Shown in pieces: positions 4,804 through 24,441 of a stretch of DNA of 36,364 bases. The position numbers were made by a program, and so were the translations under genes. Location of the stretch: positions 1-36,364 of IMG/VR virus record IMGVR_UViG_3300037424_001072. The stretch is one strand, 5' to 3'. The stretch comes from a virus. Taxonomy: Duplodnaviria > Caudoviricetes. Below the pieces are notes generated by a model that was given only the letters and a program-made list of their open reading frames with translations, did not search any database and was not told the origin of the DNA. Numbering within the stretch: the first letter of the stretch is position 1; every line of letters starts with the position of its first letter.

Positions 4804-4928
4804 TGAACGATTCGCGCAAAGAGTCTGTCGATAGGCTTACGGCCGCCAATGCGCGGATTGCGGAGCTGGAGCGGCGCCTGGATCTTCGCTTTGAGGCAAC
4901 CATTCGTAGAATCCGCAGGTACCTATGA
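4803..4928 (+). CDS. 41-aa coiled-coil peptide (absent from the ORF track)
   Basis: MNDSRKESVDRLTAANARIAELERRLDLRFEATIRRIRRYL*; bridges two genes with start/stop overlaps at both ends. Confidence 0.55.
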   Translation: MNDSRKESVDRLTAANARIAELERRLDLRFEATIRRIRRYL

Positions 4929-7123
4929 CTCAATCCTCGCTACCCGAACCAAAGCGATTTCCCAACGTCACATGGGCGCAGAACTACGCCAAGCAATTCG
5001 GGTGGCACGTGTTTCCGCTTCACTCTATCGACTCGAAGACGGGGCACTGCACATGCAAGCGAGCCGAATGCATCGGCTCGAACAACGAGGGCAAGCATCC
5101 GCGAACTCGGAATGGCGTGCTTGACGCGACGACAGATCCGGAGATAATCGGGAAGTGGTGGTCGAAACATCCAGATTCGAACATCGGGGTTGCGTGCGGC
5201 CCGTCAAAGCTCGTAGTTATTGATATCGATCCGCGCAACGACGGAGACAATACGCTCGTTGCTCTCGAGAAAACCAACGGAAAGCTACCAAGCACGCCTT
5301 GTGCGCTTACGGGTGGAGGCGGGCAGCACTATCTATTCCGGATGCCATCCGAGTCAATGCGCGGCTCGAAGATTCCGGACGGAATTGACGTCAAGGCTGA
5401 TGGCGGGTACATCGTAGCTGCGCCATCGAACCATCTGTCAGGGCGTCGATATGAATGGGATGCCGGCGCACACCCAAAGGACGTTGCGCTTGCAGAGCTA
5501 CCGGTATGGATCATCGGGCTACTGAGAAAGAAAACCGATGCGAAGCAATCAGAGATCAAACCGGAAGACGGATACCTTGGAGCGGCATTCAAAGCAGCCG
5601 GATGGGCAGGGCAATCAATTGGGTCAGACAAGATTGCTGTCCAATGCCCATGGGAGTCGGAACATTCGTCGGGATCTCGATTCGACTCCTCTACTGTTAT
5701 CTATTCTCCGAATTCTGGATGCAATACCGGCGCCTTCTGGTGTGCACATTCGCATTGCCAAAATTCGCGGACTCTGAAAGATGTCCTTCGGAAGCTACCA
5801 GCGTCTGCTCACGCTTCCGCGCGAAAGCATCTTGGACTCCCCGAAAAACACTCACCCCCTCCGGAATCATCTCCTAGCGAAATCGATACCAATGAACCCT
5901 GGACTCAAATGCTTCGTTTCAACGGAGAAGGGCAAATGAGAAAAGATCCAGGTAACGCGGCATTGCTGCTTGCGAATTTACCCGAGTGGAAAGGCGCGAT
6001 TCGCTACGATGAATTCAGCGGAAAAACGCGATGGGCCCGCCCCGCTCCACTCATTGACGGTATGGCTCGACCAGTAGTTGGCGAAGAATTGAAAGATACT
6101 CACGTCATTTATGTTGGGCACTGGCTTTCGCGATTTTCTCGTGTGACATTCACGCGGGAGACCGTACGTGATGCGATTGAGTCGGCGGCGCTGTCGCATC
6201 GCTACAATCCGTTGCAGGAATATCTCGAGTCTCTGGCATGGGATCGGAAGCCTCGGGTAGGTGTCTGGCTCTCGACTTACCTCGGCTGCGAGGATTCGGA
6301 ATATACTCGCATCGTGGGAAGGTGGTGGCTCATCTCTGCGGTGGCGCGGGCAATGAAACCTGGATGCCAAGCGGACTGCGTGCTTGTTCTGAAGGGGCCG
6401 CAAGGAGCGCGCAAATCATCCGCGGTAATCGCCCTAGCCGGTGATCAGTGGGTACTCGAGAGTCTTCCGAAACTCAACGACAAAGACTCTGTTCAGATTC
6501 TAAGGGGAGTGTGGATCGCAGCAATGAATGAACTCGAGTCGATCCGAGGAACCGCACTGACACGAGTGAAGGACTACATTTCGACTCGAGTCGACAAGTT
6601 CCGAGCGTCGTACGGTCGATATACGATCGACGTGCCGAGAGCCTGCGTGTTTGTTGGAACCGCAAACGAGCAATACTGTCTGCCCTACGATCCAACGGGA
6701 CTGCGCCGGTGGTGGCCGGTCGACGTTGGGGCGATTGATACAGACGCGATCGAACGCGACCGTGACCAGATTTGGGCCGAGGCAATGGCGTACTATCGGG
6801 CGGGCGAGCATTGGTGGCCGGAGTCCATGGGACACCTGGATCTACTCCATGAGCAGCAGCAGAGTTCAGTCGACTCCGATCCGTGGGAGTCAGTGATCGG
6901 AGACTGGCTTGCTCATCGTGAGGAGATCCTAGAGCCAGGAGATACTCTCCACGTGACGACTACTCACGTACTACAGTCGTGCCTTGGGGTCACGCCGGAC
7001 AGAATGACCCGGGCCGACCAAACGCGCGCAGGGGGCATCCTCAGAGGACTGGGATACGAGTCCCAAAGGGTGCGGACAGGGTCCGGGAATCGGGAGTACC
7101 AGTATTCCCGGGTTTCCGGCTAG
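4925..7123 (+). CDS. Bifunctional primase/polymerase (Prim-Pol) fused to a VirE/VapE-like P-loop helicase
   Basis: GKHP..NGVLDAT, NIGVACG, LVVIDIDPRN, TGGGGQHYLF, GIDVKADGGYIVAAPSNH; C-terminal VLKGPQGARKS, FRASYGR, FVGTAN, DPTGLRRWWPV, RDQIWAEA. Confidence 0.93.
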   Translation: MTQSSLPEPKRFPNVTWAQNYAKQFGWHVFPLHSIDSKTGHCTCKRAECIGSNNEGKHPRTRNGVLDATTDPEIIGKWWSKHPDSNIGVACGPSKLVVIDIDPRNDGDNTLVALEKTNGKLPSTPCALTGGGGQHYLFRMPSESMRGSKIPDGIDVKADGGYIVAAPSNHLSGRRYEWDAGAHPKDVALAELPVWIIGLLRKKTDAKQSEIKPEDGYLGAAFKAAGWAGQSIGSDKIAVQCPWESEHSSGSRFDSSTVIYSPNSGCNTGAFWCAHSHCQNSRTLKDVLRKLPASAHASARKHLGLPEKHSPPPESSPSEIDTNEPWTQMLRFNGEGQMRKDPGNAALLLANLPEWKGAIRYDEFSGKTRWARPAPLIDGMARPVVGEELKDTHVIYVGHWLSRFSRVTFTRETVRDAIESAALSHRYNPLQEYLESLAWDRKPRVGVWLSTYLGCEDSEYTRIVGRWWLISAVARAMKPGCQADCVLVLKGPQGARKSSAVIALAGDQWVLESLPKLNDKDSVQILRGVWIAAMNELESIRGTALTRVKDYISTRVDKFRASYGRYTIDVPRACVFVGTANEQYCLPYDPTGLRRWWPVDVGAIDTDAIERDRDQIWAEAMAYYRAGEHWWPESMGHLDLLHEQQQSSVDSDPWESVIGDWLAHREEILEPGDTLHVTTTHVLQSCLGVTPDRMTRADQTRAGGILRGLGYESQRVRTGSGNREYQYSRVSG

Positions 7124-8351: not shown

Positions 8352-8577
8352 ACCTGTATCCAACCTACCTCTTGCTCGTGCAGCATTCGAGATCCTCAGG
8401 TGCTATCTCGGCAAACACGATGCTCCAGTCGATGTCGACGGACTCCGAGTCTGTCTCGATGACGGGCTGCTCGAGATCTCGAAAGCGCATGTGCCGGCTC
8501 TCACCGACAGGGGCCAAGCGATGATCAATCGGATTGTCATGGGCGCGTTTCCGAAAGTGAGCGGATGCGATGACTAA
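8344..8577 (+). CDS. Hypothetical protein
   Basis: GGAG upstream; overlaps both neighbours. Confidence 0.55.
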   Translation: MAEPVSNLPLARAAFEILRCYLGKHDAPVDVDGLRVCLDDGLLEISKAHVPALTDRGQAMINRIVMGAFPKVSGCDD

Positions 8578-8824
8578 ATCCCTGTCGCTCCTAGTGCTTC
8601 TAATTCCTATCGCCTGCGACGTCATTACCCTCCCCGAGGACTCAGTACCGGCGTGCCTGTCGGACCTGGATTGCCAATCGACCGAGCGGTGCCTGGACTC
8701 GACCTGTCGGTTGGAGTGCTATGGATACGGTGACTGCCCGAGCGGGATGAAGTGTTCGCATGCGTCGAGGGATGCGCTGACATTGGACCCGTGGGACGGT
8801 AGCGCTTGCTGGCCTGAGGAATAG
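8570..8824 (+). CDS. Cys-rich lipoprotein
   Basis: Signal MTKSLSLLVLLIPIA-C (lipobox-like) followed by two C-x4-DC-x5-C type repeats. Confidence 0.7.
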   Translation: MTKSLSLLVLLIPIACDVITLPEDSVPACLSDLDCQSTERCLDSTCRLECYGYGDCPSGMKCSHASRDALTLDPWDGSACWPEE

Positions 8825-8874
8825 GGGCTAGACTATAGGCCGAGTGTTCAGTCACGCGGATCGGAGAATACGAA

Positions 8875-9054
8875 ATGGCCATTATTCAGAGATCAAAAAC
8901 GACCAGGACTAGCGGAGGTAAGGGTAAAACTACCAACCAAAACATCCGTGTTGGAAGCAAAAGTAGGGCGTCGAAAGCGGATCGCTCTTCGGCAAAGGGA
9001 TTGAAGAGGAATAAGACGTCCACGACGTATCGAATGAGTTCAGGCGGCGGATAA
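8875..9054 (+). CDS. 59-aa very basic peptide ending in SSGGG (absent from the ORF track)
   Basis: MAIIQRSKTTRTSGGKGKTTNQNIRVGSKSRASKADRSSAKGLKRNKTSTTYRMSSGGG*; GGAG RBS; TAGACT -10-like box at 8829-8834; stop abuts the TTG start at 9055. Confidence 0.75.
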   Translation: MAIIQRSKTTRTSGGKGKTTNQNIRVGSKSRASKADRSSAKGLKRNKTSTTYRMSSGGG

Positions 9055-9726
9055 TTGGATAAGTTAGCGGAAACCACCAAGCTAATTGCAGATGCCTGCG
9101 AGATTCACTCCAGAGTGTGCGTCGCCTACAGCGGCGGTAAAGATAGCTTGGTGGTTACTGCTCTCGCGTGCCGCTCGTTCGGGTTCGTTTCGGCGTTCCA
9201 AATGTGCTTGATTCCCGGACTGAGGTACAATGAGGAACGGCGAGCGTTCGCGAAAGAACGCTGGGGGATCGAAGTCCTTCCGATGCTGCACCATGACACG
9301 GTGCGACTGTTTCGTGGTGCTCATTACTGTTGGCCAGGAGTACTTCCGGTCGATGCATTCTCGTGGGGAGTATCAGAGTCGTACGCGATGGCAGCTCACG
9401 CAACCAGGTCGACTCTTGTTGTAACCGGCATGCGCCGAGGGGATTACTGCTTTCGAATTGGGAACAGCAACAACATACGTTCGGTTCCTACTCTAAGCCC
9501 GATCAGGGGTTGGAATACGTTCGATGTGCGCGGGTTTCTGAAGTCAGATGGAATATCTTTGCCTCCAGGGAGTGGCAAGCAAACTACCGGGCTTGACTTG
9601 TCAACGCCTTCGATCCTTTGGCTGCATCGAGAGTATCCGGACGACTATGAGCGAGTGCGCGCGGTGTTCCCGTTCATTGAGGCCGTGCTTCGACGTGAGG
9701 AATTCTATGGCAAAAAAACAGCCTGA
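9055..9726 (+). CDS. PAPS-reductase-like PP-loop (adenine nucleotide alpha hydrolase) protein
   Basis: VCVAYSGGKDS PP-loop, VVTGMRRGD, LSPIRGW; no C-terminal ECG(L/I)H reductase motif. Confidence 0.88.
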   Translation: MDKLAETTKLIADACEIHSRVCVAYSGGKDSLVVTALACRSFGFVSAFQMCLIPGLRYNEERRAFAKERWGIEVLPMLHHDTVRLFRGAHYCWPGVLPVDAFSWGVSESYAMAAHATRSTLVVTGMRRGDYCFRIGNSNNIRSVPTLSPIRGWNTFDVRGFLKSDGISLPPGSGKQTTGLDLSTPSILWLHREYPDDYERVRAVFPFIEAVLRREEFYGKKTA

Positions 9727-10417
9727 GGTGTTGAGCCATCCCTGGGAAAACTGGGTTCCGATGCGCATTCTGCGCAGTCAAATCCGTGGCGCGGAGTACA
9801 ACCCGCGCACAATTAGTGACTCGGGAAGGCGTAGGCTCAAGTCAGGGATGAAGAAACTCCACTTGCTGCAGCCGCTTGTCTGGAATGTCCGCAGCGGCGT
9901 GCTTGTCGGGGGCCACCAACGACTCGAGATACTCGACCGCAATGCCGGAGGAGCCAAGGATTATTACCTCACGGTTGCGCAGGTCGATTTGTCAGAGGCG
10001 GACGAGGTAGCCGCAAATCTATTGCTCAACAATCAAGAGGCTGGCGGAGAGGTGGACGTGGCCAAGCTTCGCGCTGTATTTGATAGACATCCTAATCTGG
10101 ATTTGGGTGCGGCGGGATACGAGCGCGTTGACGTGCTTCGGTTGTTCGGTATGGCGAAAGCCGAAGTAGCAACGGCAAGCGAGCTCGCTGAAATGGGCGA
10201 GTCACTCGACAAGATGCGAGACTTGGCCGACAGGATAGCCGAGACCAGTCGCAAGCGAGACGACGGTCTATTCTACGTCGTTCTCATCTTTCGCGATTCG
10301 GACGAATCGATCGCATTCGTCGAACACCTCAAATTGAGGGACGACCAATTTCAGTCGGCTGCCGACGTGCTAGGGGCAATCCGTGAGCACGGGTTGCCCG
10401 TCCAGGGGGAGAATTAG
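9707..10417 (+). CDS. ParB/Srx-like N-terminal domain protein
   Basis: AEYNPRTIS, LLQPLVWN, LVGGHQRLEIL; start reassigned to ATG 9707 with GAGG upstream. Confidence 0.88.
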   Translation: MAKKQPEVLSHPWENWVPMRILRSQIRGAEYNPRTISDSGRRRLKSGMKKLHLLQPLVWNVRSGVLVGGHQRLEILDRNAGGAKDYYLTVAQVDLSEADEVAANLLLNNQEAGGEVDVAKLRAVFDRHPNLDLGAAGYERVDVLRLFGMAKAEVATASELAEMGESLDKMRDLADRIAETSRKRDDGLFYVVLIFRDSDESIAFVEHLKLRDDQFQSAADVLGAIREHGLPVQGEN

Positions 10418-10702
10418 CGTGTCGGGCACCTTGAAAAATCTAGCGTTGCCGCGCCATGGGATCGGACGGATTCGTCGTACGTTGCGAAGGTCCCACTCGT
10501 ACAGCTCTCCCGTATCACGGCAGGCGATCACATCTGCAATTGCCACGACTGCTCCCCGTTGCAGTCCATTGCCGGTTCCGCCTTTACTGCAATGCAGTAG
10601 CAGAGGGCCACGGTGCAAGGTGGGCCACGATCGGACCTCGCAAATCTTTCTGCCCGCTACAATCTCCCCGATATGGGGCTGCCGGATAGACAGACACAAC
10701 AT
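10370..10702 (-). CDS. ASCH domain protein
   Basis: MLCLSIRQP..I..GRKICEVRSWPT.HRGPLLLH, GAVVAIADV..C, YEWDLRN...PIPWRG...FFKV: ASCH GxKxxExR signature. Confidence 0.88.
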   Translation of the reverse strand: MLCLSIRQPHIGEIVAGRKICEVRSWPTLHRGPLLLHCSKGGTGNGLQRGAVVAIADVIACRDTGELYEWDLRNVRRIRPIPWRGNARFFKVPDTLILPLDGQPVLTDCP

Positions 10703-10731
10703 ACTCGCAGTATGGCACATCGGAGGTCCTC

Positions 10732-11214
10732 GTGCCACGTAAATCTGCCACCAGGCTGGCCACTTCGGGTGCTAAGCCGGTTGGTTCGGAGATGGCTCGC
10801 AAACGCGAGGTCCGGGTACGCGAGGCGATGGCTATGATGGCTTCCGGGGCCTACGTGTTAGGTCAGACGAGTTTCGTTCTGGCTGAGAAGTGGGGGCTGA
10901 CTCATGATTCGGTGCGTCACATTACCGGGGAGGCATCGCGTAGATTGGTAGCCGGGGTCGCGCTCGAACCAGAGATGAAGTCGCTGTTGTTCGTAACGAT
11001 CCAGCAGATTGGCTCGGATTGCGAAGCTCTAACCAAGGCTCTATCCTCGAGCTCTAGGCCAAATGTTGGGGAGTACCTAGCAACGCTACGGCTCAAATTC
11101 GACATTTGCCGATATTTACACGGCGCGAACGTCGACGTGCCGAGGGGCACGGACTTGTCTACTAAATCCGAACGCGAGCTACTCGAAATCATTGCAAGGA
11201 GCACTCAGGAGTGA
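10732..11214 (+). CDS. Terminase small subunit (putative)
   Basis: GGAGG RBS; HTH-like LAEKWGLTHDSVRHI; C-terminal DLSTKSERELLEII; upstream of TerL. Confidence 0.6.
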   Translation: MPRKSATRLATSGAKPVGSEMARKREVRVREAMAMMASGAYVLGQTSFVLAEKWGLTHDSVRHITGEASRRLVAGVALEPEMKSLLFVTIQQIGSDCEALTKALSSSSRPNVGEYLATLRLKFDICRYLHGANVDVPRGTDLSTKSERELLEIIARSTQE

Positions 11215-11302
11215 ATCTGGGATGTCGACATCGAGTACCGTCTTGGGCCACCGAGTTGCTCGGAGCCATTTGGCTGTATCTGTACTGCAAGGAAGAATTC
11301 AA

Positions 11303-11518
11303 ATGCGAAAATTGAAATTAGTCCGCCTGATCCCAGGTCGCTTTGACAAGCAAATGCTCAGTTCGTCGAATACCACTCGACTTGAGATTGACGAGAACAA
11401 CGTCGTTCACGCTGTGATGCGTGACACTGGTGATCATTGGGGACTGTTCGGTGTCGTCGATGCGGTTCAATTCGATGAGTCGGAGCAGCCGAGGCCTCTG
11501 GTGAACGCAAAGCGGTGA
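11303..11518 (+). CDS. Hypothetical protein
   Basis: AAGGAAG RBS before ATG 11303; GTGA-coupled to TerL. Confidence 0.6.
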   Translation: MRKLKLVRLIPGRFDKQMLSSSNTTRLEIDENNVVHAVMRDTGDHWGLFGVVDAVQFDESEQPRPLVNAKR

Positions 11519-12948
11519 CCTTTCGCCTCGACGCTCTTAGGGAGCAAGCGTCTCGCGAACTTCAGGTGCAACGCATTCTCGAGCAGTTGCATCCGAAGCA
11601 GCGCGCATTCTGCCTTGAGCGCTCGAAACGGTCCGCGGCGCGGTCAGGGAGACGCGGTGGTAAAAGCCACGGCATTGGCGGCAAGCTCATGGTTACCGCG
11701 GTTCGGAACCCGGGGTTAGAATCGCTGTTCATCGCAATCTCGGCAGCCCGAGCCAATGACATCGTAGGGCGTGCCTTTCAGGTACTCGGGCGGTCAACTG
11801 GACTCGCCGCTCGTTCGACCAAGCGCGATGGGCAACTCTGCTACCGATTCCCAAATGGGCATACGGTTTGGGTTGCGGGCTGTAAGAACCGAGCGGATGC
11901 AGAGAAATTCCGAGGCTCTCCACTATGCGGAGCCGCTGTCGATGAGTGCGATTCGATGCGAGGACATCTCGAATATCTGACCGAGGATGTTCTTGAACCC
12001 TGTCTACTCGACTATAGTGGTTGGCTTGCTCTCACTGGTACGCCCGGCGTTACTCCGACCGGATACTTTCACGCGATCACTACTGGCGAAGGAATGCAGC
12101 AGTGGCCAACGCACCATTGGACCGTGTTGGACAATCCGTACATTCCGCATGCTGCTGAGTGGCTGCGAGAGAAGTGCGAAAAGCTTGGACTCGACCCGAC
12201 GTCACCGTCGTATCTGCGTGAGTGGATGGGTCAATGGGTTCTCGATACCGAGTCGCTTTGCTACCCATACGACGGACAGATCAATCGCGAATTTGGATCG
12301 TTCGCCGAAGGATCAGAGACTGATTGGCGATACATCCTTGGGGTAGATCTCGGTGTCAATGACGCGAGTGCTTTCGTTGTGATTGCGTATCGACCTGCGA
12401 TGCCAACGATCCACATCATCGAGTCGGTGGCTTTCGAAGGATTGTCCCCGAGTGGAGCCGCGGCGAAAGTTCTTGCATATCGCGATCGGTTCCGAGGGCT
12501 CCGAGTCGTTGCGGATACCGGAGGGATCGGGAAGGGGTTCGTCGAGGAATGGATCCAACGATTCTCTTTGCCTGTTGAGCGCGCGATGAAACTCGATGTA
12601 CGAGGACAGATCGCACTAGTGTCTGGACTCATGAGGAGTGGAGACGTCAAGGTCCACACTCCAGCGTCGTCGGGGCTGATCGCCGAATGGCAAGCGTTGC
12701 CATGGAATGAGGACCGAGACGGACACGACGAGGGTTACCCGGATCACCAGAGCGACGCAGCCCGCTATGCGATCCTAGCGGCGCAGCCGCGATACAAGGG
12801 CGAGAAGGATCTGCCCGAGCCCGGTACTCCGGAGCATGTGCGAATGATGATGGATAAGCAGCGGGAAGCGGCTTTCAAGCGGGGGGCAAAGCGGAAAATC
12901 AGAAACCTTTTGACAGAATCCGAACCATGGGTCAAAATAGCAGCGTGA
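11515..12948 (+). CDS. terL: Terminase large subunit
   Basis: LHPKQ, SGRRGGKS (Walker A), AAVDECD (Walker B), LTGTP, REWMGQW, ILGVDLG and DHQSDAARYA nuclease motifs. Confidence 0.93.
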   Translation: MTFRLDALREQASRELQVQRILEQLHPKQRAFCLERSKRSAARSGRRGGKSHGIGGKLMVTAVRNPGLESLFIAISAARANDIVGRAFQVLGRSTGLAARSTKRDGQLCYRFPNGHTVWVAGCKNRADAEKFRGSPLCGAAVDECDSMRGHLEYLTEDVLEPCLLDYSGWLALTGTPGVTPTGYFHAITTGEGMQQWPTHHWTVLDNPYIPHAAEWLREKCEKLGLDPTSPSYLREWMGQWVLDTESLCYPYDGQINREFGSFAEGSETDWRYILGVDLGVNDASAFVVIAYRPAMPTIHIIESVAFEGLSPSGAAAKVLAYRDRFRGLRVVADTGGIGKGFVEEWIQRFSLPVERAMKLDVRGQIALVSGLMRSGDVKVHTPASSGLIAEWQALPWNEDRDGHDEGYPDHQSDAARYAILAAQPRYKGEKDLPEPGTPEHVRMMMDKQREAAFKRGAKRKIRNLLTESEPWVKIAA

Positions 12949-14840
12949 CGGATGCCTGGCACAAGTCGAAAGGCGCAACGCTTGCGACACATGTCGTTTC
13001 GCTGGGTCGTAGCCTCTACCAGCAAGACGCGCCTCGCCGCGGGCGCATGCGTGCCGACCTGTCGCGTTACGAAGGTTACCGTCTCGCGTCGCTCGATCCG
13101 AGAGGGTATCGCGACCGAGGCGCGTTGATGATCGATTCAGCGGACGGTCAAGAGCGTGTTCGCTGGAACCTCTGTCGTTCACTAACTGACGCGGCCACCG
13201 CGAAGGTAGCAGGCACGCAGCAACCGAAGATACAGTTCCTTTGCTCGAACGCTGATTGGCGCACCCGACGCAAGGCGCCAAAGCTCGATGCGTTCATCGA
13301 AGGCGGATGGGGAACTCGGCAAGAACCTTACGCTGACATTCACGAGATGGGATCGATGATGTTTCGCGATGCGTGCGTCTGCGGTGAGGGCTACATCAAA
13401 GCCGAGGCAGATGTTGATGCCGGCAAAATTGAACACTCGAAACCATACCCGTGGGAGATTCTCCATGATGCCGACGATGCTCAACGTGGCAGGCCGAATC
13501 ACCGCTGGCAGGTATACAGTGAAACTCGTGATGTGTTGAAGGCGCGCAATCCTGGACGCGAAGATTACATCGATGGCGCGCGAATTCGATCTCCATCTGA
13601 GGAGTCATTCGACTCAGCGGTGACCGCCGGAGTCGTTGAACGCGTTTGGGTCTACGAGTGGTGGACGCTTCCCGAGGGGCCAGACGCTCCAGGAAAGCAC
13701 GTCAAGGCTCTCGACTCTACAGGTGAGCCTCTTGTCGAGGAACCTTGGACGCGTTCATCGTTCCCACATGTTGGGATGTTCTGGAGCCGCACCGTGATTG
13801 GGCACGGAGGAACTTCGCTCGTTCATGAGGTGTCCGAGATCTCAGATGAGATGAATGCTGTCATCGGTCGAATGTCGAGGTCGATCCACTTGACCTCGAT
13901 GTCTCACATTCTGGCTCCAAGCGGAGCGGGGCTCGGAGATAAGCTCAGGGACAACGAGGACTGTAAGGTTACTGAGTACGATGGTCAGATGGTTCCGACG
14001 GTTCAGAACCCAGCCCCCTTCGGGCAAGAGCATATCAATTGGATCCAGTTGCAGAAGGGTGCAGCGTACGAACTAAGCGGGATCAGCCAGCAGACTGCGA
14101 CCGCGCAGAAGCAACCGGGGATCGAAAGCGGAGCTGCAATTCGCATGGTGGCCGATATTCAGTCCGAACGATTCTCTGTCGCTTGGAAAGCGTACCAGTC
14201 TGTATTCGTGGAGCTTGCTCGGCACGACATCGCTTGCATTCGTGAGCTCGCTGAGGTTGACAAGGACTTTGCTATCAAGTGGCCCGGAGAAGGATTTCTC
14301 AAGACAATCAAATGGGCAGACGCAGATCTCGATGATGAGATGTATTCGATCCGGGTTTCCGAGGCTCCTGCAGTAAAGGGAACCGGCGCAGATCGGATGC
14401 AAACGGCACAAGAGCTCTTTGGCGCCGGGATGATTTCTCAGGACGCGTTTCTTGCTGTTCGACAGTATCTCGACCTTCCGGGTGAAATGGACTCTGGCTC
14501 GAGACAGCGCAATCTCGTGTCGCAGTACATCGAGAATTGGCTGGATGCGACACCCGAGCAGTACGAGTCGGGAGAACTTGCGGATGGCAAACCTCTATTC
14601 CGTCCGCCGATCCGCTGGATGCGGCTCGAAGACGCTCTCTTGCAGGTGGCTGACGCTTACATGCAAGCCGAGCTTGATGACGCGCCCGACGAGGCTAAGG
14701 ATTTGATGCTTCGTTGGATCGAATTGGCCGACGGTGAGATCCAAAAGAAGATGCAACGGATGGCAGCAATGGCGCCGCCGCCCGCTAACCCCATGCCACC
14801 CCCCGGCGCTATGCCGCCCACCGGAGGACCCGCAGTATGA
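12945..14840 (+). CDS. Portal protein
   Basis: About 630 aa directly after TerL (GTGA overlap); helical; AYELSGIS...SGAAIR motif; Pro-rich tail. Confidence 0.85.
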   Translation: MTDAWHKSKGATLATHVVSLGRSLYQQDAPRRGRMRADLSRYEGYRLASLDPRGYRDRGALMIDSADGQERVRWNLCRSLTDAATAKVAGTQQPKIQFLCSNADWRTRRKAPKLDAFIEGGWGTRQEPYADIHEMGSMMFRDACVCGEGYIKAEADVDAGKIEHSKPYPWEILHDADDAQRGRPNHRWQVYSETRDVLKARNPGREDYIDGARIRSPSEESFDSAVTAGVVERVWVYEWWTLPEGPDAPGKHVKALDSTGEPLVEEPWTRSSFPHVGMFWSRTVIGHGGTSLVHEVSEISDEMNAVIGRMSRSIHLTSMSHILAPSGAGLGDKLRDNEDCKVTEYDGQMVPTVQNPAPFGQEHINWIQLQKGAAYELSGISQQTATAQKQPGIESGAAIRMVADIQSERFSVAWKAYQSVFVELARHDIACIRELAEVDKDFAIKWPGEGFLKTIKWADADLDDEMYSIRVSEAPAVKGTGADRMQTAQELFGAGMISQDAFLAVRQYLDLPGEMDSGSRQRNLVSQYIENWLDATPEQYESGELADGKPLFRPPIRWMRLEDALLQVADAYMQAELDDAPDEAKDLMLRWIELADGEIQKKMQRMAAMAPPPANPMPPPGAMPPTGGPAV

Positions 14841-15964
14841 CCGAAACCGCCGTAGAAAGCCCTGGATTCACTCCGCCCGAAAACGTCCGAGAGCGCAACG
14901 CGAAATGGTCCGGCGCGTCCAATGAGACTCCTATTGCAGCTGTCGATACTCCAGTTTCTACTGTTCCTGCTGCTGATCCAAAGCCTGTTGTGGCTGATCC
15001 AGATCCTAAGCCTGTGCCTGCAGTTGCTGAGGCTAAGCCAGTCGTCGAAACCAAGCAAACGATCGATGTCGACAAGCTCAAGAAACTAGCGACCGACGGA
15101 CAATTTGAGGATGTTCTGCGCGCCCTGGGTCTCGATCCGGCAGGAATCAAGGTTCCCTCGAGTCGCTTCGCAGAGTTCCGGCAATGGGAAAAACAGGAGA
15201 AGGCGAAAATCCATCAGGCCTCTCAGCGAGTATTGAGTGAACAGGCCGAGGTTCGTTCGCTTGCTCAGCAAACGGTCAAGCAGTTCGAGCCGTTCGTCTC
15301 TGCGAAAGCAGCATGGGACAAGGGCGACGTTGAAACCGCCATCAAGCAGGCCTTCGGTGCCGATATCGAAAATTTCAGCGAGCTGGCCGTCAAACAGAAA
15401 CTTGGTCAAGATCCCGAAGTCACCCAGCTGAAACGCTGGAAGGAACAGCAAGAGGCGCGTGAAGCTGAACGTATCGAGAGTGAGAAGAAATCTCAGGCTG
15501 AGCAGTTCACCCAGCGACAGCGCAATGAGTATTGTGCCGCTCTGAAAGTTGAACTCAAGCAGGCGGAACCGGTCGTTGCGGCCGCCGTCGAGACTTTCGA
15601 CGATTTCCCGACTCGAGTGATGCAGCTTCAACTCGAGCATTATGAAAAAACTGGCGAGGAAATGCCAGCCGAAGAAGCTGGCGCAAAGCTTTTGGAGACC
15701 GTTCGCTCGAATGTCGAGCGCTGGAACAAGGTCTTTGGTGTCGTGGCACCCAAACCACTGAGTAGCGACGCGGCCGCGACACAGCCGCTGGATACCGCCC
15801 GGGCAGGGACATCGCCCGCGTTTACTGCGAAAAAAAGCAGTAAAAAGCAGGCGCAACCCGCTCCGGCGTTACCGGATTCTGAGCTGTCAGAAGATGAGAA
15901 GAGAGCCGTTTGGAAGAAACGGATCAAGCAGGCAGCTATTGAAGACGGTTTCGTTCAGGGGTGA
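14837..15964 (+). CDS. Capsid scaffolding protein (putative)
   Basis: Between portal and capsid; charged coiled coil with disordered Pro/Ala-rich termini; GGAGG RBS. Confidence 0.7.
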   Translation: MTETAVESPGFTPPENVRERNAKWSGASNETPIAAVDTPVSTVPAADPKPVVADPDPKPVPAVAEAKPVVETKQTIDVDKLKKLATDGQFEDVLRALGLDPAGIKVPSSRFAEFRQWEKQEKAKIHQASQRVLSEQAEVRSLAQQTVKQFEPFVSAKAAWDKGDVETAIKQAFGADIENFSELAVKQKLGQDPEVTQLKRWKEQQEAREAERIESEKKSQAEQFTQRQRNEYCAALKVELKQAEPVVAAAVETFDDFPTRVMQLQLEHYEKTGEEMPAEEAGAKLLETVRSNVERWNKVFGVVAPKPLSSDAAATQPLDTARAGTSPAFTAKKSSKKQAQPAPALPDSELSEDEKRAVWKKRIKQAAIEDGFVQG

Positions 15965-15987
15965 GGTAAGCGCCATGGAGAAAGTCC

Positions 15988-17262
15988 ATGTCCGCTACAC
16001 TCGCAACTGTTGATGCAATGATGAAGGACAACTACGGGCCAGGCTCGAAGCGCGTCCAAAAACTCATGTACAAGGATTTCCCGTTTCTTGGCTACATCAA
16101 GAAGAACGTGGGAGTTGAAAACGGATCCGGTCGTAAGCTGATCGCCCCTTGCCTCTATGGCTCAGCGCAAGGACTGTCGTCTGGATTCACCACTGGTCGT
16201 ACCGCAGCAAGTACCACGGGCGGCAACACCAAGTCGCAAGATTGGAACGTAGAATGGGGCGAGTACTTCGCATTCTGTGACATCAGTGATAAGCTGATGA
16301 AGTTGAGTGCGGGAAGCGGCTCCTACATCGACACGATTCAGACCGAGATCGACTCGCTGTATACGTCCTGGTCTATGACGTTTTCGAAATACTTGCTCGG
16401 AAGCACCGCGCGTAACCTCGGCTCGTTCACGATTTCAACGGGCGTCTGTACGATGGTAGTGCCCGAAGATATCGTGAATATCAAGGTCGGGATGCTGGTT
16501 CAGGCGTCTGCTAACGACGGCTCCAGTTCGGGCCACACGTTGCTCGGCTCCGGTTCGATCGGGTATGTCATTGCGGTCAATCAGAACGCAAATACGTTCA
16601 CGGTTTCCGCGACTGATGGGGGAGCGGCTGGTGATCCCTCGAGTTGGACCGGTACCATGCACGCCTTTCGTTACGGAGACTTCGGCGGGTCCGGGGCAAA
16701 CACAGTTTGCCAAGGATTCGGCGATTGGTGTCCCGCGGCGGATCCGAGCGCGACGGCGTTCAATGGCGTCGTCCGCACGCAAGACGTGATTGCTCTGTCG
16801 GGAGTCCGTCTTACGGCTGCTGAGATCTCCGGGCTCTCTCTCGAGAGCAGGATCAAGCGTTTGGTTACCCGTATGACGAGTCGAGGATTCGGAGCACCGC
16901 GAGCAGTGTTCGTCAACCCCGAGAAGTGGCAGGACCTTGCCGATTCGTACGAACAGCGAGCGATTGCTGCAGATCGGATCGGAACGACTGGCACCTTCGG
17001 ATACAAGACGATTAAGGTCATTGGAGGCGGCGCTGAGGTCGATGTTATGACCGATCGTTGTGTCGGAGCGACGGATATCCTCGCAATGGGCGAGCCTGAT
17101 TCGTTCACGCTGAACACTCCGGAAGAGTTCCCTGCCGTGGTGAATGGCGACGGACTCGACATGCTGCGCAAGGTCGGCTCGAACGACTACGAGCATCGGC
17201 TCGGCGCATACCCGGCCACGTTGGCCATCCCGGGATTTCTCGGGCGAACCACGGCGCCATAA
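15988..17262 (+). CDS. Major capsid protein
   Basis: 424 aa after the scaffold; strong GGAG RBS; HK97-like layout (MMKDNY..., PFLGYIKK, AVFVNPEKWQDL, VDVMTDRC). Confidence 0.85.
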   Translation: MSATLATVDAMMKDNYGPGSKRVQKLMYKDFPFLGYIKKNVGVENGSGRKLIAPCLYGSAQGLSSGFTTGRTAASTTGGNTKSQDWNVEWGEYFAFCDISDKLMKLSAGSGSYIDTIQTEIDSLYTSWSMTFSKYLLGSTARNLGSFTISTGVCTMVVPEDIVNIKVGMLVQASANDGSSSGHTLLGSGSIGYVIAVNQNANTFTVSATDGGAAGDPSSWTGTMHAFRYGDFGGSGANTVCQGFGDWCPAADPSATAFNGVVRTQDVIALSGVRLTAAEISGLSLESRIKRLVTRMTSRGFGAPRAVFVNPEKWQDLADSYEQRAIAADRIGTTGTFGYKTIKVIGGGAEVDVMTDRCVGATDILAMGEPDSFTLNTPEEFPAVVNGDGLDMLRKVGSNDYEHRLGAYPATLAIPGFLGRTTAP

Positions 17263-17270
17263 CCCGCACA

Positions 17271-17310
17271 GGCTTGAGCGGCGTGCCTGCTCTGGTGCGC
17301 CGCTCCAGCC
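17271..17310 (+). other. GC-rich hairpin after the capsid gene (stabiliser, processing site or weak terminator)
   Basis: GAGCGGCG (17276-17283) pairs with CGCCGCTC (17298-17305), closed by GGCT/AGCC; no U-tract. Confidence 0.55.
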
Positions 17311-17322
17311 GAGGAAAAAATC

Positions 17323-17730
17323 ATGAGTACTCACGCAGCAAACGCGCCCGACGCGAACAAGGCCAAGACGGCCAGCTGTCGAGCGATAGTTGTCTTTCGG
17401 GAGCGGGTAGCTATTGGCTCTACCGGCGCCCCGACTCAGGCCACGGTTACCACGTCCAAACCGCCTTCGAACGGTTACGACGATCCGGGCTTTACAATCA
17501 CCAGGACATCCACTGGGCTCTATGCAATCACGTTCCCCAAGGGGCGGCGCGCTTGGATCGATGTTCGGGCGATTTCACCTGCGCAGACTGTGACTACCTG
17601 GAATCTGGTGGCAATCGACCCGGAAGCTGGAACCGCGTCATTCACTATGCTGGCCGGCACAAATGCAGCGGCCGCAACCGATCCAGCGAGTGGAGACGCT
17701 CTGTTGATTCGGATTGAAGTCGAGGTGTAA
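17323..17730 (+). CDS. Putative head decoration/minor virion protein
   Basis: Thr/Ala-rich beta protein right after the capsid gene; ITRTSTGLYAITFP; GAGG RBS. Confidence 0.55.
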   Translation: MSTHAANAPDANKAKTASCRAIVVFRERVAIGSTGAPTQATVTTSKPPSNGYDDPGFTITRTSTGLYAITFPKGRRAWIDVRAISPAQTVTTWNLVAIDPEAGTASFTMLAGTNAAAATDPASGDALLIRIEVEV

Positions 17731-17731
17731 C

Positions 17732-17947
17732 ATGGGCAAGGGACTTTCGATCGGAATCCTCTTAGGAAAGGGTAAGCACGCCAGTGAATCGGCGGACAAG
17801 TCTCTGGAAAATTCCGAGGAAATGTCATCGAGTGAAACGGGCGACGAATTGCCGCCAGGATTGCTCGAGGCCGTGTCAGAATTCAGAGCGGCCGAAACTG
17901 ACGAGGATGCCGCCAGGGCGTTCAAATCCGCCATGGATTGCTGCTAG
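17732..17947 (+). CDS. Small acidic hypothetical protein
   Basis: GAGGT upstream; fills the gap between virion genes. Confidence 0.55.
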   Translation: MGKGLSIGILLGKGKHASESADKSLENSEEMSSSETGDELPPGLLEAVSEFRAAETDEDAARAFKSAMDCC

Positions 17948-17962
17948 AAAGGAAGCCGAGCA

Positions 17963-18688
17963 GTGAGCTATCGAACGATGACTGAACTCGAGGCGGACGT
18001 TAGGTTTCGCTACGACTTGGAGACGTTCACTGCTCGGCATCCACAGGCAAACGTGTTTCGATTGTTGAACGATGCGATGCGAGATTTTAGGGATCGGCTG
18101 ACTGTTGATGGTTCGTCGCTGTTTTTGACATCGATGATCATATTGAGCAGTGCTGTCGGACCGAGCGCTTATTTCCCGGGCACCTTGATCCCATTTGGGT
18201 CAACGAAATTCACTTTCGTTCGTGACGTCCATTTGCTGGAAGGAACGTCGTGGCTCCCGCTCCGCGAAATTAGCTACGATGATGCGCTGAATTGGACAGA
18301 CTTGTCGTCGAATTCGCAGCCTCGGGCATGGTGTCTGGCTGGCGTTGACGTTGAAAGCGCCGCGTCAACTACCACCGGGCAGTCGATGCAGATTATGGTG
18401 GTACCCCCAAACAATACAACAAGGAGCTATCGTGTCGTTGGGTTAGCCACAGTCGCTGATTTGGGCGCGAACGATCGAGTAATGACCGATCTCGGAATGC
18501 ATGAATACGCGATTCGCTGGGTTGGGCTGCAACTTGCGACTCGGGACGACGATGTGGCGCTATGGCAGGCGCGCTCGGCGGAACTGCAACAGTGCTACCA
18601 GGACAGCTTGAAACGTGCGAAAAACCGCACTCCTGGGCATTCCAGGCGAACTGACACCAGGACCCGGGGGACCCAATGGCGCTGGTAA
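17963..18688 (+). CDS. Head-tail adaptor protein (putative)
   Basis: TMTELEADVRFR...LLNDA N-terminal helices, beta insertion (QPRAW, IMVVPP), C-terminal helices; position after head genes. Confidence 0.7.
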   Translation: MSYRTMTELEADVRFRYDLETFTARHPQANVFRLLNDAMRDFRDRLTVDGSSLFLTSMIILSSAVGPSAYFPGTLIPFGSTKFTFVRDVHLLEGTSWLPLREISYDDALNWTDLSSNSQPRAWCLAGVDVESAASTTTGQSMQIMVVPPNNTTRSYRVVGLATVADLGANDRVMTDLGMHEYAIRWVGLQLATRDDDVALWQARSAELQQCYQDSLKRAKNRTPGHSRRTDTRTRGTQWRW

Positions 18689-19077
18689 CCAAATTGAAGC
18701 GCCGAGGCCACTGGCCTGGGATTGCTGATCCTTATCGATCAGCGTTTGCTGATGTCGAGAGCAATGCGGCAGATGCGATTGACCAGTTGGAGCAACGCAA
18801 GCGCTCAGCTTGGAATCGTGTCGTCTCCAATACTCCCAGCGTTCAGGCTTCGCTTTGGGACCTTGTGATCTGCCAGGTGAATTGCGAGGTGCTGATACCA
18901 GCTGCGAGCGTCCAGAATTTCGGCGCTGAGATCTGTGTTCAGTGCGGGTCGTCTCTCACGGTTACGATCCGTCCGCTCTCCGGTACGATCAATGGTTCAG
19001 CAAGCTACGCCGCGGCCCCCTCGGACAGAGCTAGAGTTTTCGTTTCTACGGGACTCGGGTGGTCGTCCTATGCCTAG
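18676..19077 (+). CDS. Putative virion/tail protein
   Basis: Overlaps adaptor and nozzle; VTIRPLSGTINGS beta repeat-like segment. Confidence 0.55.
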   Translation: MALVTKLKRRGHWPGIADPYRSAFADVESNAADAIDQLEQRKRSAWNRVVSNTPSVQASLWDLVICQVNCEVLIPAASVQNFGAEICVQCGSSLTVTIRPLSGTINGSASYAAAPSDRARVFVSTGLGWSSYA

Positions 19078-22000
19078 GATCCCGATCGCACTCAATGGGT
19101 TTGCTCAAGTTCCGGACGAACATGGTGGGCCACCGCGCGTTGCTCGTCTTATAAATGCTCGCGTGGATGCTCCACAGAGAATCGCCAAATCACCTGGGTC
19201 CATAGCATTGCCGACTGCAACGGTTCCGAGTGGTAGCGGGCTGACGGCTCCATTGGCTTATGGCGTCACCCCGACGGGGGAAGCATACGCGGTAAGTCGC
19301 CAGGCATTATCCGTGAATCGAGGCGCGTCGGTTTACGGAATTGACGACTCCGCTTGGTACCAGGCAAGCAGTGATCCATACGTGGTATACGATGAGGCTC
19401 CGAGAGTAGAGGATATTTTCGATCAAGAAAGCTATTCGTACAATGCCCCTGGGATTCTTGATCTCGGAAACGGCGACTACGTTGTAGTAGCCGAAGCGTT
19501 GAAGAATTTCGCTGGCTCTGGAGGTGGTTCATTCACGTACAACGAACTTCACTGGGCTCTCGTATCTGGTGGAGATCTAAAACCAAAGTCCCGCGGAAGT
19601 ATCCTCACATGGTCCGGTACTACACAACGCTCATATCCGGTCACAGCTGGGCCATATGTGATCTGCTGGACAGACACGAATACGCTTACGATTTGGAGCT
19701 TTAGTAACTCAACCACATTGGGTTTGGTGGCTATCGCTACAGTAACCTCGTCAGTAGCGTGGTCAAGCGGATACCAACTGGACGCGTCGTATGACCCGAT
19801 CTTAGGTCGACTACTTCTCATCGGTCCACTCGGTGAGTTTTGGCTTCTAAATACCACGACTTGGGCAGTCGCTCTCACCGGTACACTTCCCATTTCTGGC
19901 CCAGTGCAAGGCACTATTGGAGTCGCTGTAAACTCAACAATCACACCGGGAAGGACCTATTTGGCATATCGAACTTCCAGTTCAGCGTGGTTCTGTTACA
20001 TTGCAAATATTTTGGACTCGGGAATCGTTCCGGTGCTTGCCGTGACTCCGCTGTTCACTTCTCCAAACGCCATGAGCGATCCGGGGTTCGTGAAGTGGCG
20101 TGCGCAAATTACGGCATGGGCTGACCCAACCCTAAATCTTACCGAAGGTGCGGTTGCCGCCATTTATCAGAACGCGCTAATTGATGATTCTCCGACCGGG
20201 ACCGGCTTATTGATGGTGTTCAGTGCATCCGGAGTGGCATCGAGACTGTCTTACGGGTTCGAAATGTTCGCATCGATCCCAGCGTGCAAGCCGATCGTTA
20301 GGGCAACCGATGCAGTTGCTCCGGCAAAGGTCGCGTCATTTAGAATCTGGGGATATCAGACTCAAGGCAGAACGCTGCGTAGCGCAGTGGCTCTGTCGAC
20401 CGGCTATACTCAGTACCAGGATGGAGGAAATGATCGCATGTATCCCCGGCTGACCGGGGTTGCGTTTCGAGCTGCCGATCCGGGCCCTGCTCCGTCGGAA
20501 TTACTTATTGGAGCCGTCAACGCGAGCGTTGTGACGCCAACGGGGATTGGCGGAAAGTCGGGATGGCTCACGGCATTGTGTTGTCAAAAATATGCCGATC
20601 TAGGCCCGAATACTTGGGCAAATGTAAGCGTAAAATTGGTAGCACAAGCGGATGGAGATCAGCTGTTGACCGGATCGACATTGCCCGATGTGCTAAAAGG
20701 GGTGCCTACTGTAGATTCGTCGATCATTGTATCTGCAATTCCGGATCAATTCGGCGGCAGGGTCGACATGCAGGGTGCGCAGTACCCTCCACGCAATCCA
20801 ATCCTAGTGGAGAGGGCGATCGGTTCTACTCCGGCGGCTGGTACGTATGTATATTTGGTAGTCCGCGAATGGCGGGACGGAAAAGGGAACGTTCACCGGA
20901 GTCCACCGAGTGACCCAAAGACCATTAGCACGGCTGATCCGGGGACGATCGAAATCACTTGCTATGACGACCCGTGGCAAAATCGAGTACTGGAAACGGT
21001 TACAAAGATCTATCGAACAACCAACGGTGGCTCGGTTTTCTACAACGTTTCTGGAGCCGATGGAATAACCACTCCTGGTTCGACAAATGCTGGGGTTATG
21101 TTCACTGATGGAGCATCGGACGCGAGTATTGTCAGCAATGAAATCCTTTATACGCAAGCTGAGCGAGGAGGGAACTCGGGAATGCTTGATTGGTGGGGAA
21201 CTCCTCCCTGTAGATGCGCATGGGCTGGAGCAGACAGGGTGATTGCTGGTGGACTCGAGAATCCATGCAGGTTCCGTCTTTCGAATCTGTTCTTTTCGAC
21301 CGAGGGGATTTCGTGGCCTGAGCATGCTGCGTTTTGGGGAACGATCAACGAAGCGGTTACGGCTGTTGCGTCACTCGACGTTGCTTGGTTGGTATTCGGG
21401 GGAAATTCTGTTTGGCTCGTCTCTGGTCAGGGTCCGGATTCGTTTGGAAATGGAACGTTCGAGGTTCCGAGGAAACTATCGACCGGTGTGGGCGCACGCA
21501 ATCAGCGTTCGGTTGTAGAGACTCCAGAAGGCATCATGTTCCAGTCGAGCGATGCCCAGATCTATCTCGTGCAACGTGGCACCTATCAAGTTGTCCAGAA
21601 GTCGCAGGCGATTCGGGATGCGATTGGAAAGTCACCCGCAAGCGTATCAGTAGTAACGCTTGGCGGAAATGACTATTCCGATCCAACTTATTGGATCGTT
21701 GGGGCTGTCCACGATCCATTCGCTAATGAAGTCTGGTTCAGCGACTTGCTCAGTCGTTCTTGGGTTTACCAGCCCGACTTCGGGGCGTGGCGAGAAGAGG
21801 TAGCTGTTTCGGAGTCGAGTAAGATCTGCATTTACGTCGGTTCAATCAAAGTGACCGGCTACGAAGGTCCCGCATTTATTCGAGTCCCCTCCGTTGGAGC
21901 ATCCGCAGGATATCGCGTCGCGCGCAAGTCCGACACGAATACATACACCGATCGGCTCGGGAATATTCGTGTCATGGGGTTTCACACAAACGACATTGAC

Positions 22001-22381
22001 CTGATTCACGGGAGGCTCAAGCGGATCTGGGTGCGCATGTATCGTCAACCAGATGAAGCAAGCCCAAAGATCATGCCATGTTCAGTTGCGCTATGGTTTG
22101 ACGGTTCTCGCGATACCGGACTTCCGTCGGTCCCGACTAATCCCGACGAAACTCGATCATATCCCCTTGAGTCTGCAGCGGACAACACACGATTTATGGA
22201 TCTTGAGTTCTGTCCGGCACGGCAAAAGTGCAACCAGTTCAGATTCTGTTGGTACGACGCTCCCGCTGTGGGCGCGACCGCAAATCTTTCGACCTACATC
22301 ATCGGCGTGGACGTCGAGATCGAACAATCTCCAAAGGTCCGCGGGATCCGTTACGCGGCAGGAACTCCGAGGGCAACCTAA
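19070..22381 (+). CDS. Large tail nozzle/stabilisation protein (beta-propeller-rich)
   Basis: About 1100 aa, start reassigned to ATG 19070; propeller-like C-terminal half (VTAVASLD..WLVF...VWLVSG.GP, GVGA....SVVETPEGIMFQS); precedes ejection genes. Confidence 0.7.
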   Translation: MPRIPIALNGFAQVPDEHGGPPRVARLINARVDAPQRIAKSPGSIALPTATVPSGSGLTAPLAYGVTPTGEAYAVSRQALSVNRGASVYGIDDSAWYQASSDPYVVYDEAPRVEDIFDQESYSYNAPGILDLGNGDYVVVAEALKNFAGSGGGSFTYNELHWALVSGGDLKPKSRGSILTWSGTTQRSYPVTAGPYVICWTDTNTLTIWSFSNSTTLGLVAIATVTSSVAWSSGYQLDASYDPILGRLLLIGPLGEFWLLNTTTWAVALTGTLPISGPVQGTIGVAVNSTITPGRTYLAYRTSSSAWFCYIANILDSGIVPVLAVTPLFTSPNAMSDPGFVKWRAQITAWADPTLNLTEGAVAAIYQNALIDDSPTGTGLLMVFSASGVASRLSYGFEMFASIPACKPIVRATDAVAPAKVASFRIWGYQTQGRTLRSAVALSTGYTQYQDGGNDRMYPRLTGVAFRAADPGPAPSELLIGAVNASVVTPTGIGGKSGWLTALCCQKYADLGPNTWANVSVKLVAQADGDQLLTGSTLPDVLKGVPTVDSSIIVSAIPDQFGGRVDMQGAQYPPRNPILVERAIGSTPAAGTYVYLVVREWRDGKGNVHRSPPSDPKTISTADPGTIEITCYDDPWQNRVLETVTKIYRTTNGGSVFYNVSGADGITTPGSTNAGVMFTDGASDASIVSNEILYTQAERGGNSGMLDWWGTPPCRCAWAGADRVIAGGLENPCRFRLSNLFFSTEGISWPEHAAFWGTINEAVTAVASLDVAWLVFGGNSVWLVSGQGPDSFGNGTFEVPRKLSTGVGARNQRSVVETPEGIMFQSSDAQIYLVQRGTYQVVQKSQAIRDAIGKSPASVSVVTLGGNDYSDPTYWIVGAVHDPFANEVWFSDLLSRSWVYQPDFGAWREEVAVSESSKICIYVGSIKVTGYEGPAFIRVPSVGASAGYRVARKSDTNTYTDRLGNIRVMGFHTNDIDLIHGRLKRIWVRMYRQPDEASPKIMPCSVALWFDGSRDTGLPSVPTNPDETRSYPLESAADNTRFMDLEFCPARQKCNQFRFCWYDAPAVGATANLSTYIIGVDVEIEQSPKVRGIRYAAGTPRAT

Positions 22382-24001: not shown

Positions 24002-24002
24002 C

Positions 24003-24440: not shown

Positions 24441-24441
24441 C

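Follow-up and report, generated by a model that had tools for sequence, protein, structure and literature searches.

A phage gene module joining a small-residue-tailed basic peptide to a PP-loop enzyme, a ParB-like protein and an ASCH protein: a tentative case for peptide-marked DNA

Why would a phage place a tiny, strongly basic peptide ending in glycines directly in front of an enzyme that databases call a PAPS reductase, within reach of its terminase genes? The question arose from the window analysed here, the whole 36,364-nt stretch of a virus record (IMG/VR IMGVR_UViG_3300037424_001072; Caudoviricetes; completeness estimate 43%), and was followed into homologous loci of viruses, annotated phages and prophages. 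We regard it as nearly certain that four genes at this locus act together, namely those for the peptide, the PP-loop enzyme, a ParB-like protein and an ASCH-domain protein:

8863..8867, plus strand: GGAGA, serving the peptide gene as ribosome-binding site, 7 nt ahead of its ATG (from the sequence)
8875..9054, plus strand: 59-aa basic peptide with a Ser/Gly tail, putative substrate and acyl donor (from the sequence and homologous loci)
9055..9726, plus strand: 223-aa PP-loop enzyme with the adenine-nucleotide alpha-hydrolase fold, putative adenylating ligase (from the fold model and motifs)
9707..10417, plus strand: 236-aa ParB-like protein, putative DNA loader or adaptor (from PHROG and ParB/Spo0J matches)
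10370..10702, minus strand: 110-aa ASCH-domain protein, putative N4-acyl-cytosine eraser (from Pfam ASCH and a family profile)

The arrangement is compact. The TAA of the peptide gene (9052-9054) abuts the TTG start of the enzyme at 9055, the ParB-like gene begins with an ATG at 9707 and thus overlaps the enzyme gene by 20 nt, and the ASCH gene is convergent with the ParB-like gene, the two overlapping by 48 nt. Both plus-strand junctions had been described in a first-pass annotation made from the DNA letters, as had the ribosome-binding site and the make-up of the peptide (59 aa, 15 K/R, 1 D/E, SSGGG end), and all of these hold. The -10-like box that it saw before the peptide gene finds no support, as a sigma-70 scan of positions 8400-11300 returned no plus-strand promoter; a search for RNA runs returned no RNA holder among its results. 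The same annotation set the ParB-like gene just upstream of the small terminase subunit (TerS), which is wrong, since the minus-strand ASCH gene stands between the two.

Is the peptide a gene at all? Scans of the Pfam and PHROG type gave no family match for it. A near relative (locus L121), whose enzyme is 97% identical to that of the window, carries a GGAGG site at the place of the GGAGA, and over the first 57 codons its peptide gene differs by 12 synonymous and 5 non-synonymous codon changes. At the tail, an in-frame 9-nt insertion adds three Gly and so lengthens the Gly run. Because of this synonymous excess and the in-frame tail insertion, we take the 59-aa peptide to be a real gene. Its ending is also rare in the window, where only 4 of the 580 open reading frames (ORFs) of at least 20 aa end in Gly-Gly.

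We then asked whether such a peptide accompanies the enzyme elsewhere. Loci were gathered with an enzyme profile, with a ParB profile and from annotated phages; among those selected by ParB, 75/80 viral and 64/80 prophage loci held a full-length enzyme homologue. Enzymes were clustered at 70% identity, and the most basic ORF ending at most 250 nt from the enzyme start was picked by charge only, the last six residues being ignored. The viral/phage set comprised 65 clusters, two of which were dropped for short upstream DNA, leaving 63 examined and 54 with a pick; L032, which does not truly belong to the family, was kept, as were some shadow-frame picks. G is the last residue in 31 of these 54 picks, and 15 have GG, compared with 23 and 2 among 162 picks that the same rule made at 269 sites before other long ORFs (G ends, Fisher p 1.7e-9). 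The prophage set behaved likewise: from 38 clusters (three dropped, 35 examined), 31 picks were obtained, 18 ending in G versus 11/111 controls from 173 sites (p 7.7e-8) and 15 ending in GG. When tails were instead chosen by hand, a choice that favours G, 52/68 ended in G.

Loci with several peptides make the point in another way. Two or three basic ORFs with four or more of the final five residues in common occur in 13/103 module loci, as opposed to none of 80 control loci, the latter being undereplicated; roughly three of these 13 appear to be shadow frames, and the others mostly differ at synonymous sites. In Lactobacillus phage JNU_P7, three otherwise unlike basic proteins, all encoded downstream of the enzyme, carry one common tail. 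A basic ORF with a small-residue or Gly tail thus accompanies the enzyme family, as had been anticipated, and where a locus has several such peptides they share the tail at the protein level. The remainder of the peptide varies: many members resemble histone-H1-type Lys/Ala repeats, and family lengths start at 24 aa. Such low complexity, together with these lengths, would argue against a beta-grasp fold.

The ASCH gene, overlooked in the first-pass annotation, is the fourth member of the module. The window protein matches Pfam ASCH with an E value of 9e-4 and has the G-x-K-x-x-E-x-R motif intact, as in the GKER group of ASCH amidohydrolases, and the nearest solved relatives of the family profile are TRIP4/ASC-1 (E 3e-16) and TTHA0113 (TthASCH, PDB 2DP9; E 1.5e-10). 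With a local profile, ASCH genes were found in 29/65 viral and 26/38 prophage clusters, that is, 55/103 module loci, versus 0/27 clusters and 1/80 loci of a ParB-methylase control family (p 6e-8), which, unlike the module, also comes without the peptide. A Pfam spot check of 12 module ASCH proteins yielded 10 matches, 8 of them above the cut-off. For most of these genes (51/55) the distance is at most 700 bp; of the 51, 29 converge on ParB, 18 are upstream with the same orientation and 4 are divergent. G.K..[ET].R is kept in 46/55 of the proteins. Given the enrichment of tails and ASCH genes over controls, we reject chance adjacency of peptide, enzyme and ASCH gene.

This protein is the best clue to the acceptor. 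According to a 2026 preprint, all 19 ASCH proteins assayed remove N4-acetylcytidine (ac4C) from tRNA, with the Lys and Glu of the motif catalytic and, in TthASCH, essential (10.64898/2026.02.27.708502). E. coli YqfB cleaves hexanoyl- and benzoyl-N4-deoxycytidine (PMC6972931, Table 1). By analogy, the module ASCH protein may hydrolyse N4-acylcytidines. Approached from the ASCH side, the enzyme is no farther than 2.5 kb away in 19/65 ASCH-selected phage clusters, some of which are seed loci of this analysis; other ASCH neighbours (73/126 scanned) include methylases, Mom, radical-SAM-like and replication genes. Three such neighbourhoods deserve mention in their own right. At L305:2486-3555, ASCH is convergent with a Mom-family gene, a module-like geometry with another acyl-transferring DNA modifier; at L295, L315 and L317 it is convergent on ABC/AAA-like ATPase genes, at L295 also beside a glutamine amidotransferase domain, possibly another ASCH-linked module; and at L320:1023-3645 it is flanked on one side by an N6/N4 methylase and on the other by a PAPS_reduct gene that is Pfam-positive and belongs to a different family.

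What, then, is the enzyme? Its model (pLDDT 91) has the SGGxDS pyrophosphate loop on a Rossmann-like alpha/beta fold, and the PP-loop assignment of the first reading is borne out by fold comparison, with top matches at Z 12-14: LarE (14.1), NcsA (12.7), QueC (12.5), FAD synthase and GMP synthetase (12.4 each) and also NAD synthetase, followed by APS reductase (11.6) and Cap9 (11.0); TtuA and TilS are also among the neighbours, and a second fold search agrees. No single member of this superfamily stands out as the closest. Judged from the model, the neighbours are adenylating synthetases, and we count this in favour of an adenylating role. Across a redundant set of 338 sequences the conserved positions are S26-G28-K29-D30-S31, G125, D130, R134, P149, W153 and D197. 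Homologues are usually annotated as 'PAPS reductase', many with a precomputed Pfam label, and we reject this identity for the window enzyme. As had been observed, SGGKDS is present in it and ECG(L/I)H absent; neither ECG[LI]H nor CCxx[RL]K occurs in any of the 338 homologues, and the Pfam PAPS_reduct match covers only residues 21-43, the PP-loop, at 15.5 bits versus a cut-off of 22.5. No Cys column exceeds 62%, CxxC is present in 5/338 sequences and 6/338 have no Cys at all.

The family numbers 611 representatives at E <=1e-30 and 1,308 at 1e-10, the latter possibly with other families included, and its hosts span Bacillota, Pseudomonadota, Bacteroidota, Myxococcota, Planctomycetota, Verrucomicrobiota, Acidobacteriota and Gordonia. 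A viral scan with the single protein found no relative, and PADLOC gave no match for enzyme, peptide or ASCH protein. Co-folding of the enzyme with peptide residues 28-59, ATP and Mg scored 0.01 and gave no answer.

The ParB-like protein, although without a Pfam match, hits phrog_9353 (E 8.8e-37), phrog_620 (ParB-like) and ParB/Spo0J (E 3e-4 and 5e-4), with weak Foldseek matches to ParB CTPases (best E 2.4e-3). It consists of a ParB N-terminal nucleotide-binding domain and a small C-terminal domain. Its NPR and GHQR align with QPR and GERR of ParB/Spo0J, and it has Asn-Asn at the place of the Glu-Asn box of canonical ParB. The C-terminal part, modelled with low confidence, matches the stand-alone partner of Pasteurella phage Pm86 weakly (probability 45%) and that of CA1NRNZ negligibly (5.5%); an Atlas search with it returned only unnamed viral clusters. 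We infer that this protein loads the enzyme on DNA. In L003:3563-4219, an HNH-like gene, so read from its sequence, lies between the enzyme and ParB genes.

Downstream of the module come the presumed packaging genes of the window:

10792..11214, plus strand: candidate small terminase subunit, TerS (from its position)
11515..12948, plus strand: terminase large subunit, TerL (phrog_2, E 3.5e-28; Terminase_6C)

Of the terminase neighbourhood proposed initially, the TerL part is secured by family matches, whereas TerS is a positional assignment, with no family match in Pfam and PHROG scans. Position before terminases is a recurring trait of the module. Of 90 clusters with enough downstream DNA, 77 have a candidate long ORF; 80 of 130 candidates were scanned, covering 73 loci, and in 52 of these 73 a terminase subunit follows directly (PHROG scan, hand count). 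These terminases belong to several PHROG families (2/3717, 15/675, 38/4758, 979/9526 and 9). Many module loci are prophages. At L090, L139, L144, L153 and L189, extra ParB-methylase, methylase or Mom-like genes lie between module and terminase. With its ParB-like gene and enzyme directly upstream of a terminase, the window fits the ParB-terminase (ParB-Tls) type of phage locus, which Iyer, Zhang and Aravind predicted to modify DNA during packaging and in which ASCH is likewise linked to DNA-modifying enzymes (PMC4738411). The accessible part of that paper names methyltransferases only for such loci, in place of which the module has a PP-loop enzyme and an encoded tailed peptide.

How might these parts work together? 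The enzyme would adenylate the C-terminal carboxylate of the basic peptide, and the activated peptide would be joined to the N4 amine of cytosine, giving peptide-CO-NH-cytosine. The ParB-like protein would load the enzyme onto DNA undergoing packaging, and the ASCH protein would hydrolyse the N4-peptidyl amide. Tethered basic peptides could then hide sites in virion DNA from restriction or from other defences that sense DNA, and could offset its charge, their removal after infection freeing the genome. The product is suggested by three things taken together: a carboxylate-activating fold, a partner conserved only in its small-residue C-terminus, and an amidase family that acts on cytosine N4. 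A universal acceptor, DNA, is preferred over one virion protein because terminase families and hosts vary, and DNA over RNA because of the packaging position and the ParB partner.

Our confidence differs from part to part. That the C-terminus of the peptide is activated at all we consider slightly better than an even bet. The combined step, in which the enzyme adenylates this end and forms N4-peptidyl-cytosine on DNA being packaged with ASCH as the eraser, falls somewhat short of even, and we rate cytosine N4 in phage DNA as the acceptor, all considered, the same. The full picture, in which phages coat packaged DNA covalently with ribosomally made basic peptides, a mislabelled 'PAPS reductase' writing N4-peptidyl-cytosine on a ParB-like loader and an ASCH amidase erasing it, as a reversible, protein-sized base mark over hundreds of lineages, is put forward as tentative and a shade less probable again.

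Several observations weigh against this proposal. First among them, and the main result against C-terminal activation, are the ends other than Gly: 16/68 hand-chosen tails have S, K, H, A, Q, R, I, D or N as their last residue, and such tails are scattered over the enzyme tree. In a branch whose partner appears to lack the ParB N-terminal domain, the peptides of Pm86 and Morgana end in Ser, and the candidate peptides of VanLee, CA1NRNZ and BigBern1 have basic or bulky ends with the Ser/Gly run a few residues inside. Under the pick rule, 9/63 viral and 4/35 prophage loci have no basic ORF, and redundancy between the viral set and the prophage set was not removed. ASCH is missing from 48/103 module loci, and 46/65 ASCH-selected phage clusters have no enzyme within 2.5 kb. 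The ASCH gene of JNU_P7 precedes the enzyme gene by 40 bp in the same orientation, which means that writing and erasing cannot always be kept apart in time. The ASCH activity demonstrated is on tRNA and nucleosides, not on DNA; ASCH was predicted to be a reader of modified bases (PMC4738411), and earlier work found ASCH proteins with the Glu motif inactive (discussed in 10.64898/2026.02.27.708502). Every chemical step, the cytosine-in-DNA acceptor and the purpose are moreover deduced.

A strict ubiquitin-like Gly-Gly end is rejected on the same figures, GG being found in 15/54 and 15/31 picks only and the three phages of the ParB-less branch having basic ends. The initial expectation of a consistently Gly-ended upstream ORF survives as an enrichment and fails as a rule. 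As a whole, the first-pass reading keeps its linkage of a Gly-tailed ORF, its PP-loop fold and its terminase position, and loses the sulfur option and the strict Gly-Gly end. The deviating branch comprises L037, L039 and L374-L376 (Morgana, Pm86, VanLee, CA1NRNZ and BigBern1), where the partner apparently lacks the ParB N-terminal domain and the peptides end in Ser or basic residues; in L374:2111-2467, close to the right end of the genome, short tandem repeats form an in-frame array upstream of the VanLee enzyme gene.

The non-Gly ends are tolerated by another chemistry. TmcAL, an acetyl-adenylate writer, acylates a tRNA cytosine with a small carboxylate, and the module enzyme could similarly place acetate or a free amino acid on cytosine for ASCH to erase, the peptide being a non-covalent partner that either docks to activate the enzyme or condenses DNA as a core protein with an enzyme-binding tail. 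Such a scheme explains the ASCH linkage and suits the histone-H1-like look of many peptides. A docking motif need not be terminal, however, whereas most loci have the small-residue run right at the C-terminus, a feature on which the unrelated proteins of JNU_P7 and the other multi-peptide loci have converged. On balance, we consider this unlikely, though the most serious competitor. The proposed peptidyl mark resembles ac4C in that a carboxylate-adenylating writer gives the same N4-amide. The likeness extends to the catalytic Lys/Glu/Arg of ASCH/YqfB erasers (10.64898/2026.02.27.708502, PMC6972931), the differences being an acetyl group and a tRNA acceptor there and a PP-loop writer, a peptide neighbour and a packaging operon here.

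The activated partner could also be the nucleic acid. TilS adenylates a base carbonyl, and activation of a backbone phosphate has been proposed for DndC; the module enzyme might act likewise, with a peptide amine or Ser hydroxyl attacking and the tail serving only for positioning. TilS, NcsA, TtuA and GMP synthetase among the fold neighbours, the Lys-rich peptides and the internal Ser/Gly run kept in the ParB-less branch all agree with this. It leaves the neighbour from an amide-hydrolase family unexplained, though; some tails lack Ser, and in several peptides, which are rich in Arg, Lys is scarce or absent. We think it improbable.

Slightly more doubtful still is tagging in the manner of ubiquitin or Pup, with the activated peptide attached to lysine residues in a protein of the phage or its host. 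The Gly-Gly ends of a share of the picks would suit it, and Cap9-CdnD (PDB 9NTO, Z 11) is an example of a PP-loop enzyme conjugating onto a protein. Most tails are not Gly-Gly, on the other hand, several different terminase families accompany the module, ParB and ASCH are nucleic-acid-directed, and no E2-like or protease partner was seen, albeit without a systematic scan for them.

An RNA acceptor, with tRNA cytidine modified in a toxin-antidote or host-takeover pair and the convergent ASCH gene protecting the lysogen, has the published activity of ASCH on tRNA in its favour (10.64898/2026.02.27.708502), as well as the many prophage loci and the 29/55 ASCH genes that are convergent on ParB and therefore separately transcribed. 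Such a pair seems quite improbable to us: the module heads packaging genes and includes a ParB-like partner, a potent toxin would not tolerate 48/103 loci without ASCH, and the enzyme drew no PADLOC match. Least likely by far, and largely refuted by sequence, is a sulfur role (an auxiliary metabolic PAPS reductase, a TtuA-TtuB-like thiocarboxylate carrier or DndC-like phosphorothioation), for which database labels and the top fold matches LarE, TtuA and NcsA speak, and which, like the thiocarboxylate option of the first-pass annotation, founders on the lack of reductase and conserved Cys motifs in the 338 sequences, on the sub-threshold Pfam match and on a low-complexity peptide with no family match.

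Does the module belong to a known system? It lacks what defines CysH, TtuA-type thiolases, DndC and ubiquitin-like carriers. With CysH and DndC the enzyme shares the SGGKDS loop and a fold similarity of Z about 11, but it has neither ECG[LI]H nor the Cys dyad, and no Dnd partners were seen. TtuA-TtuB, NcsA-SAMP and Ncs6-Urm1 each pair a PP-loop thiolase with a Gly-Gly sulfur carrier. Fold and small Gly-ended partner are alike (compare TtuA-TtuB, PDB 5GHA), whereas the module enzyme conserves no Cys that could serve a cluster or zinc fingers and its partner is basic and low-complexity with a variable end residue. In Cap9-CdnD of type IV CBASS and in QatC-QatB, activation falls on a free deazaguanine, with an N-terminal Gly as nucleophile. 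These are likewise PP-loop enzymes making a nucleobase-protein conjugate at a terminal Gly; in the module, by contrast, conservation is found at the C-terminus, the N-termini being variable, and no Cys of the enzyme is conserved. The parallel with IbrA/IbrB drawn at first appears to be partial: loci L023-L026, which we take to be of this type, resemble the module in having PAPS-reductase-like and ParB-like folds side by side in prophages, but their ParB-like gene is upstream, the opposite gene order, their enzyme of ~350 aa matches the enzyme profile only at positions 4-44 (the PP-loop), and no tailed peptide is present.

No published description of the module surfaced among the papers listed by literature searches, although Iyer et al. 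2013 or its supplement may list the neighbourhood. In their accessible parts, PMC12839542 and PMC10853773 treat BREX and Dnd systems, and a term search of those of PMC8320454 and PMC12694917 found nothing on the module genes. For the cultured carriers checked, no data on modified virion DNA were found in the literature.

Elsewhere in the window, an 84-aa Cys-rich ORF with a signal-like N-terminus and weak WAP/Dumpy-type matches lies directly before the peptide gene (8570-8824, plus strand) and may encode a small lipoprotein. A primase-polymerase fused to a VapE-like helicase is encoded at 4925-7123 (plus strand). The presumed portal, head and tail region (12927-29009, plus strand) has almost no family matches, only a weak one to major head protein phrog_14242, as for a divergent virion.

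The module is real even if its chemistry proves different, and its presence in cultured phages of harmless hosts, such as Lactobacillus phage LR1, Bacteroides phage BS-TP2 and Gordonia phage Morgana, opens it to direct testing. Should the proposal be right, a large enzyme family now labelled as a sulfur-metabolism gene would gain a function; auxiliary-metabolic-gene surveys that rely on the 'PAPS reductase' label would be misled. A ligase joining small-residue-tailed peptides to DNA would, in that case, also be a useful reagent. For the phages themselves, N4-peptidyl-cytosine would be a new kind of DNA modification, a whole-peptide mark that has a dedicated writer and eraser and parallels ubiquitin tagging, though on a base, and likely a new counter-defence strategy.

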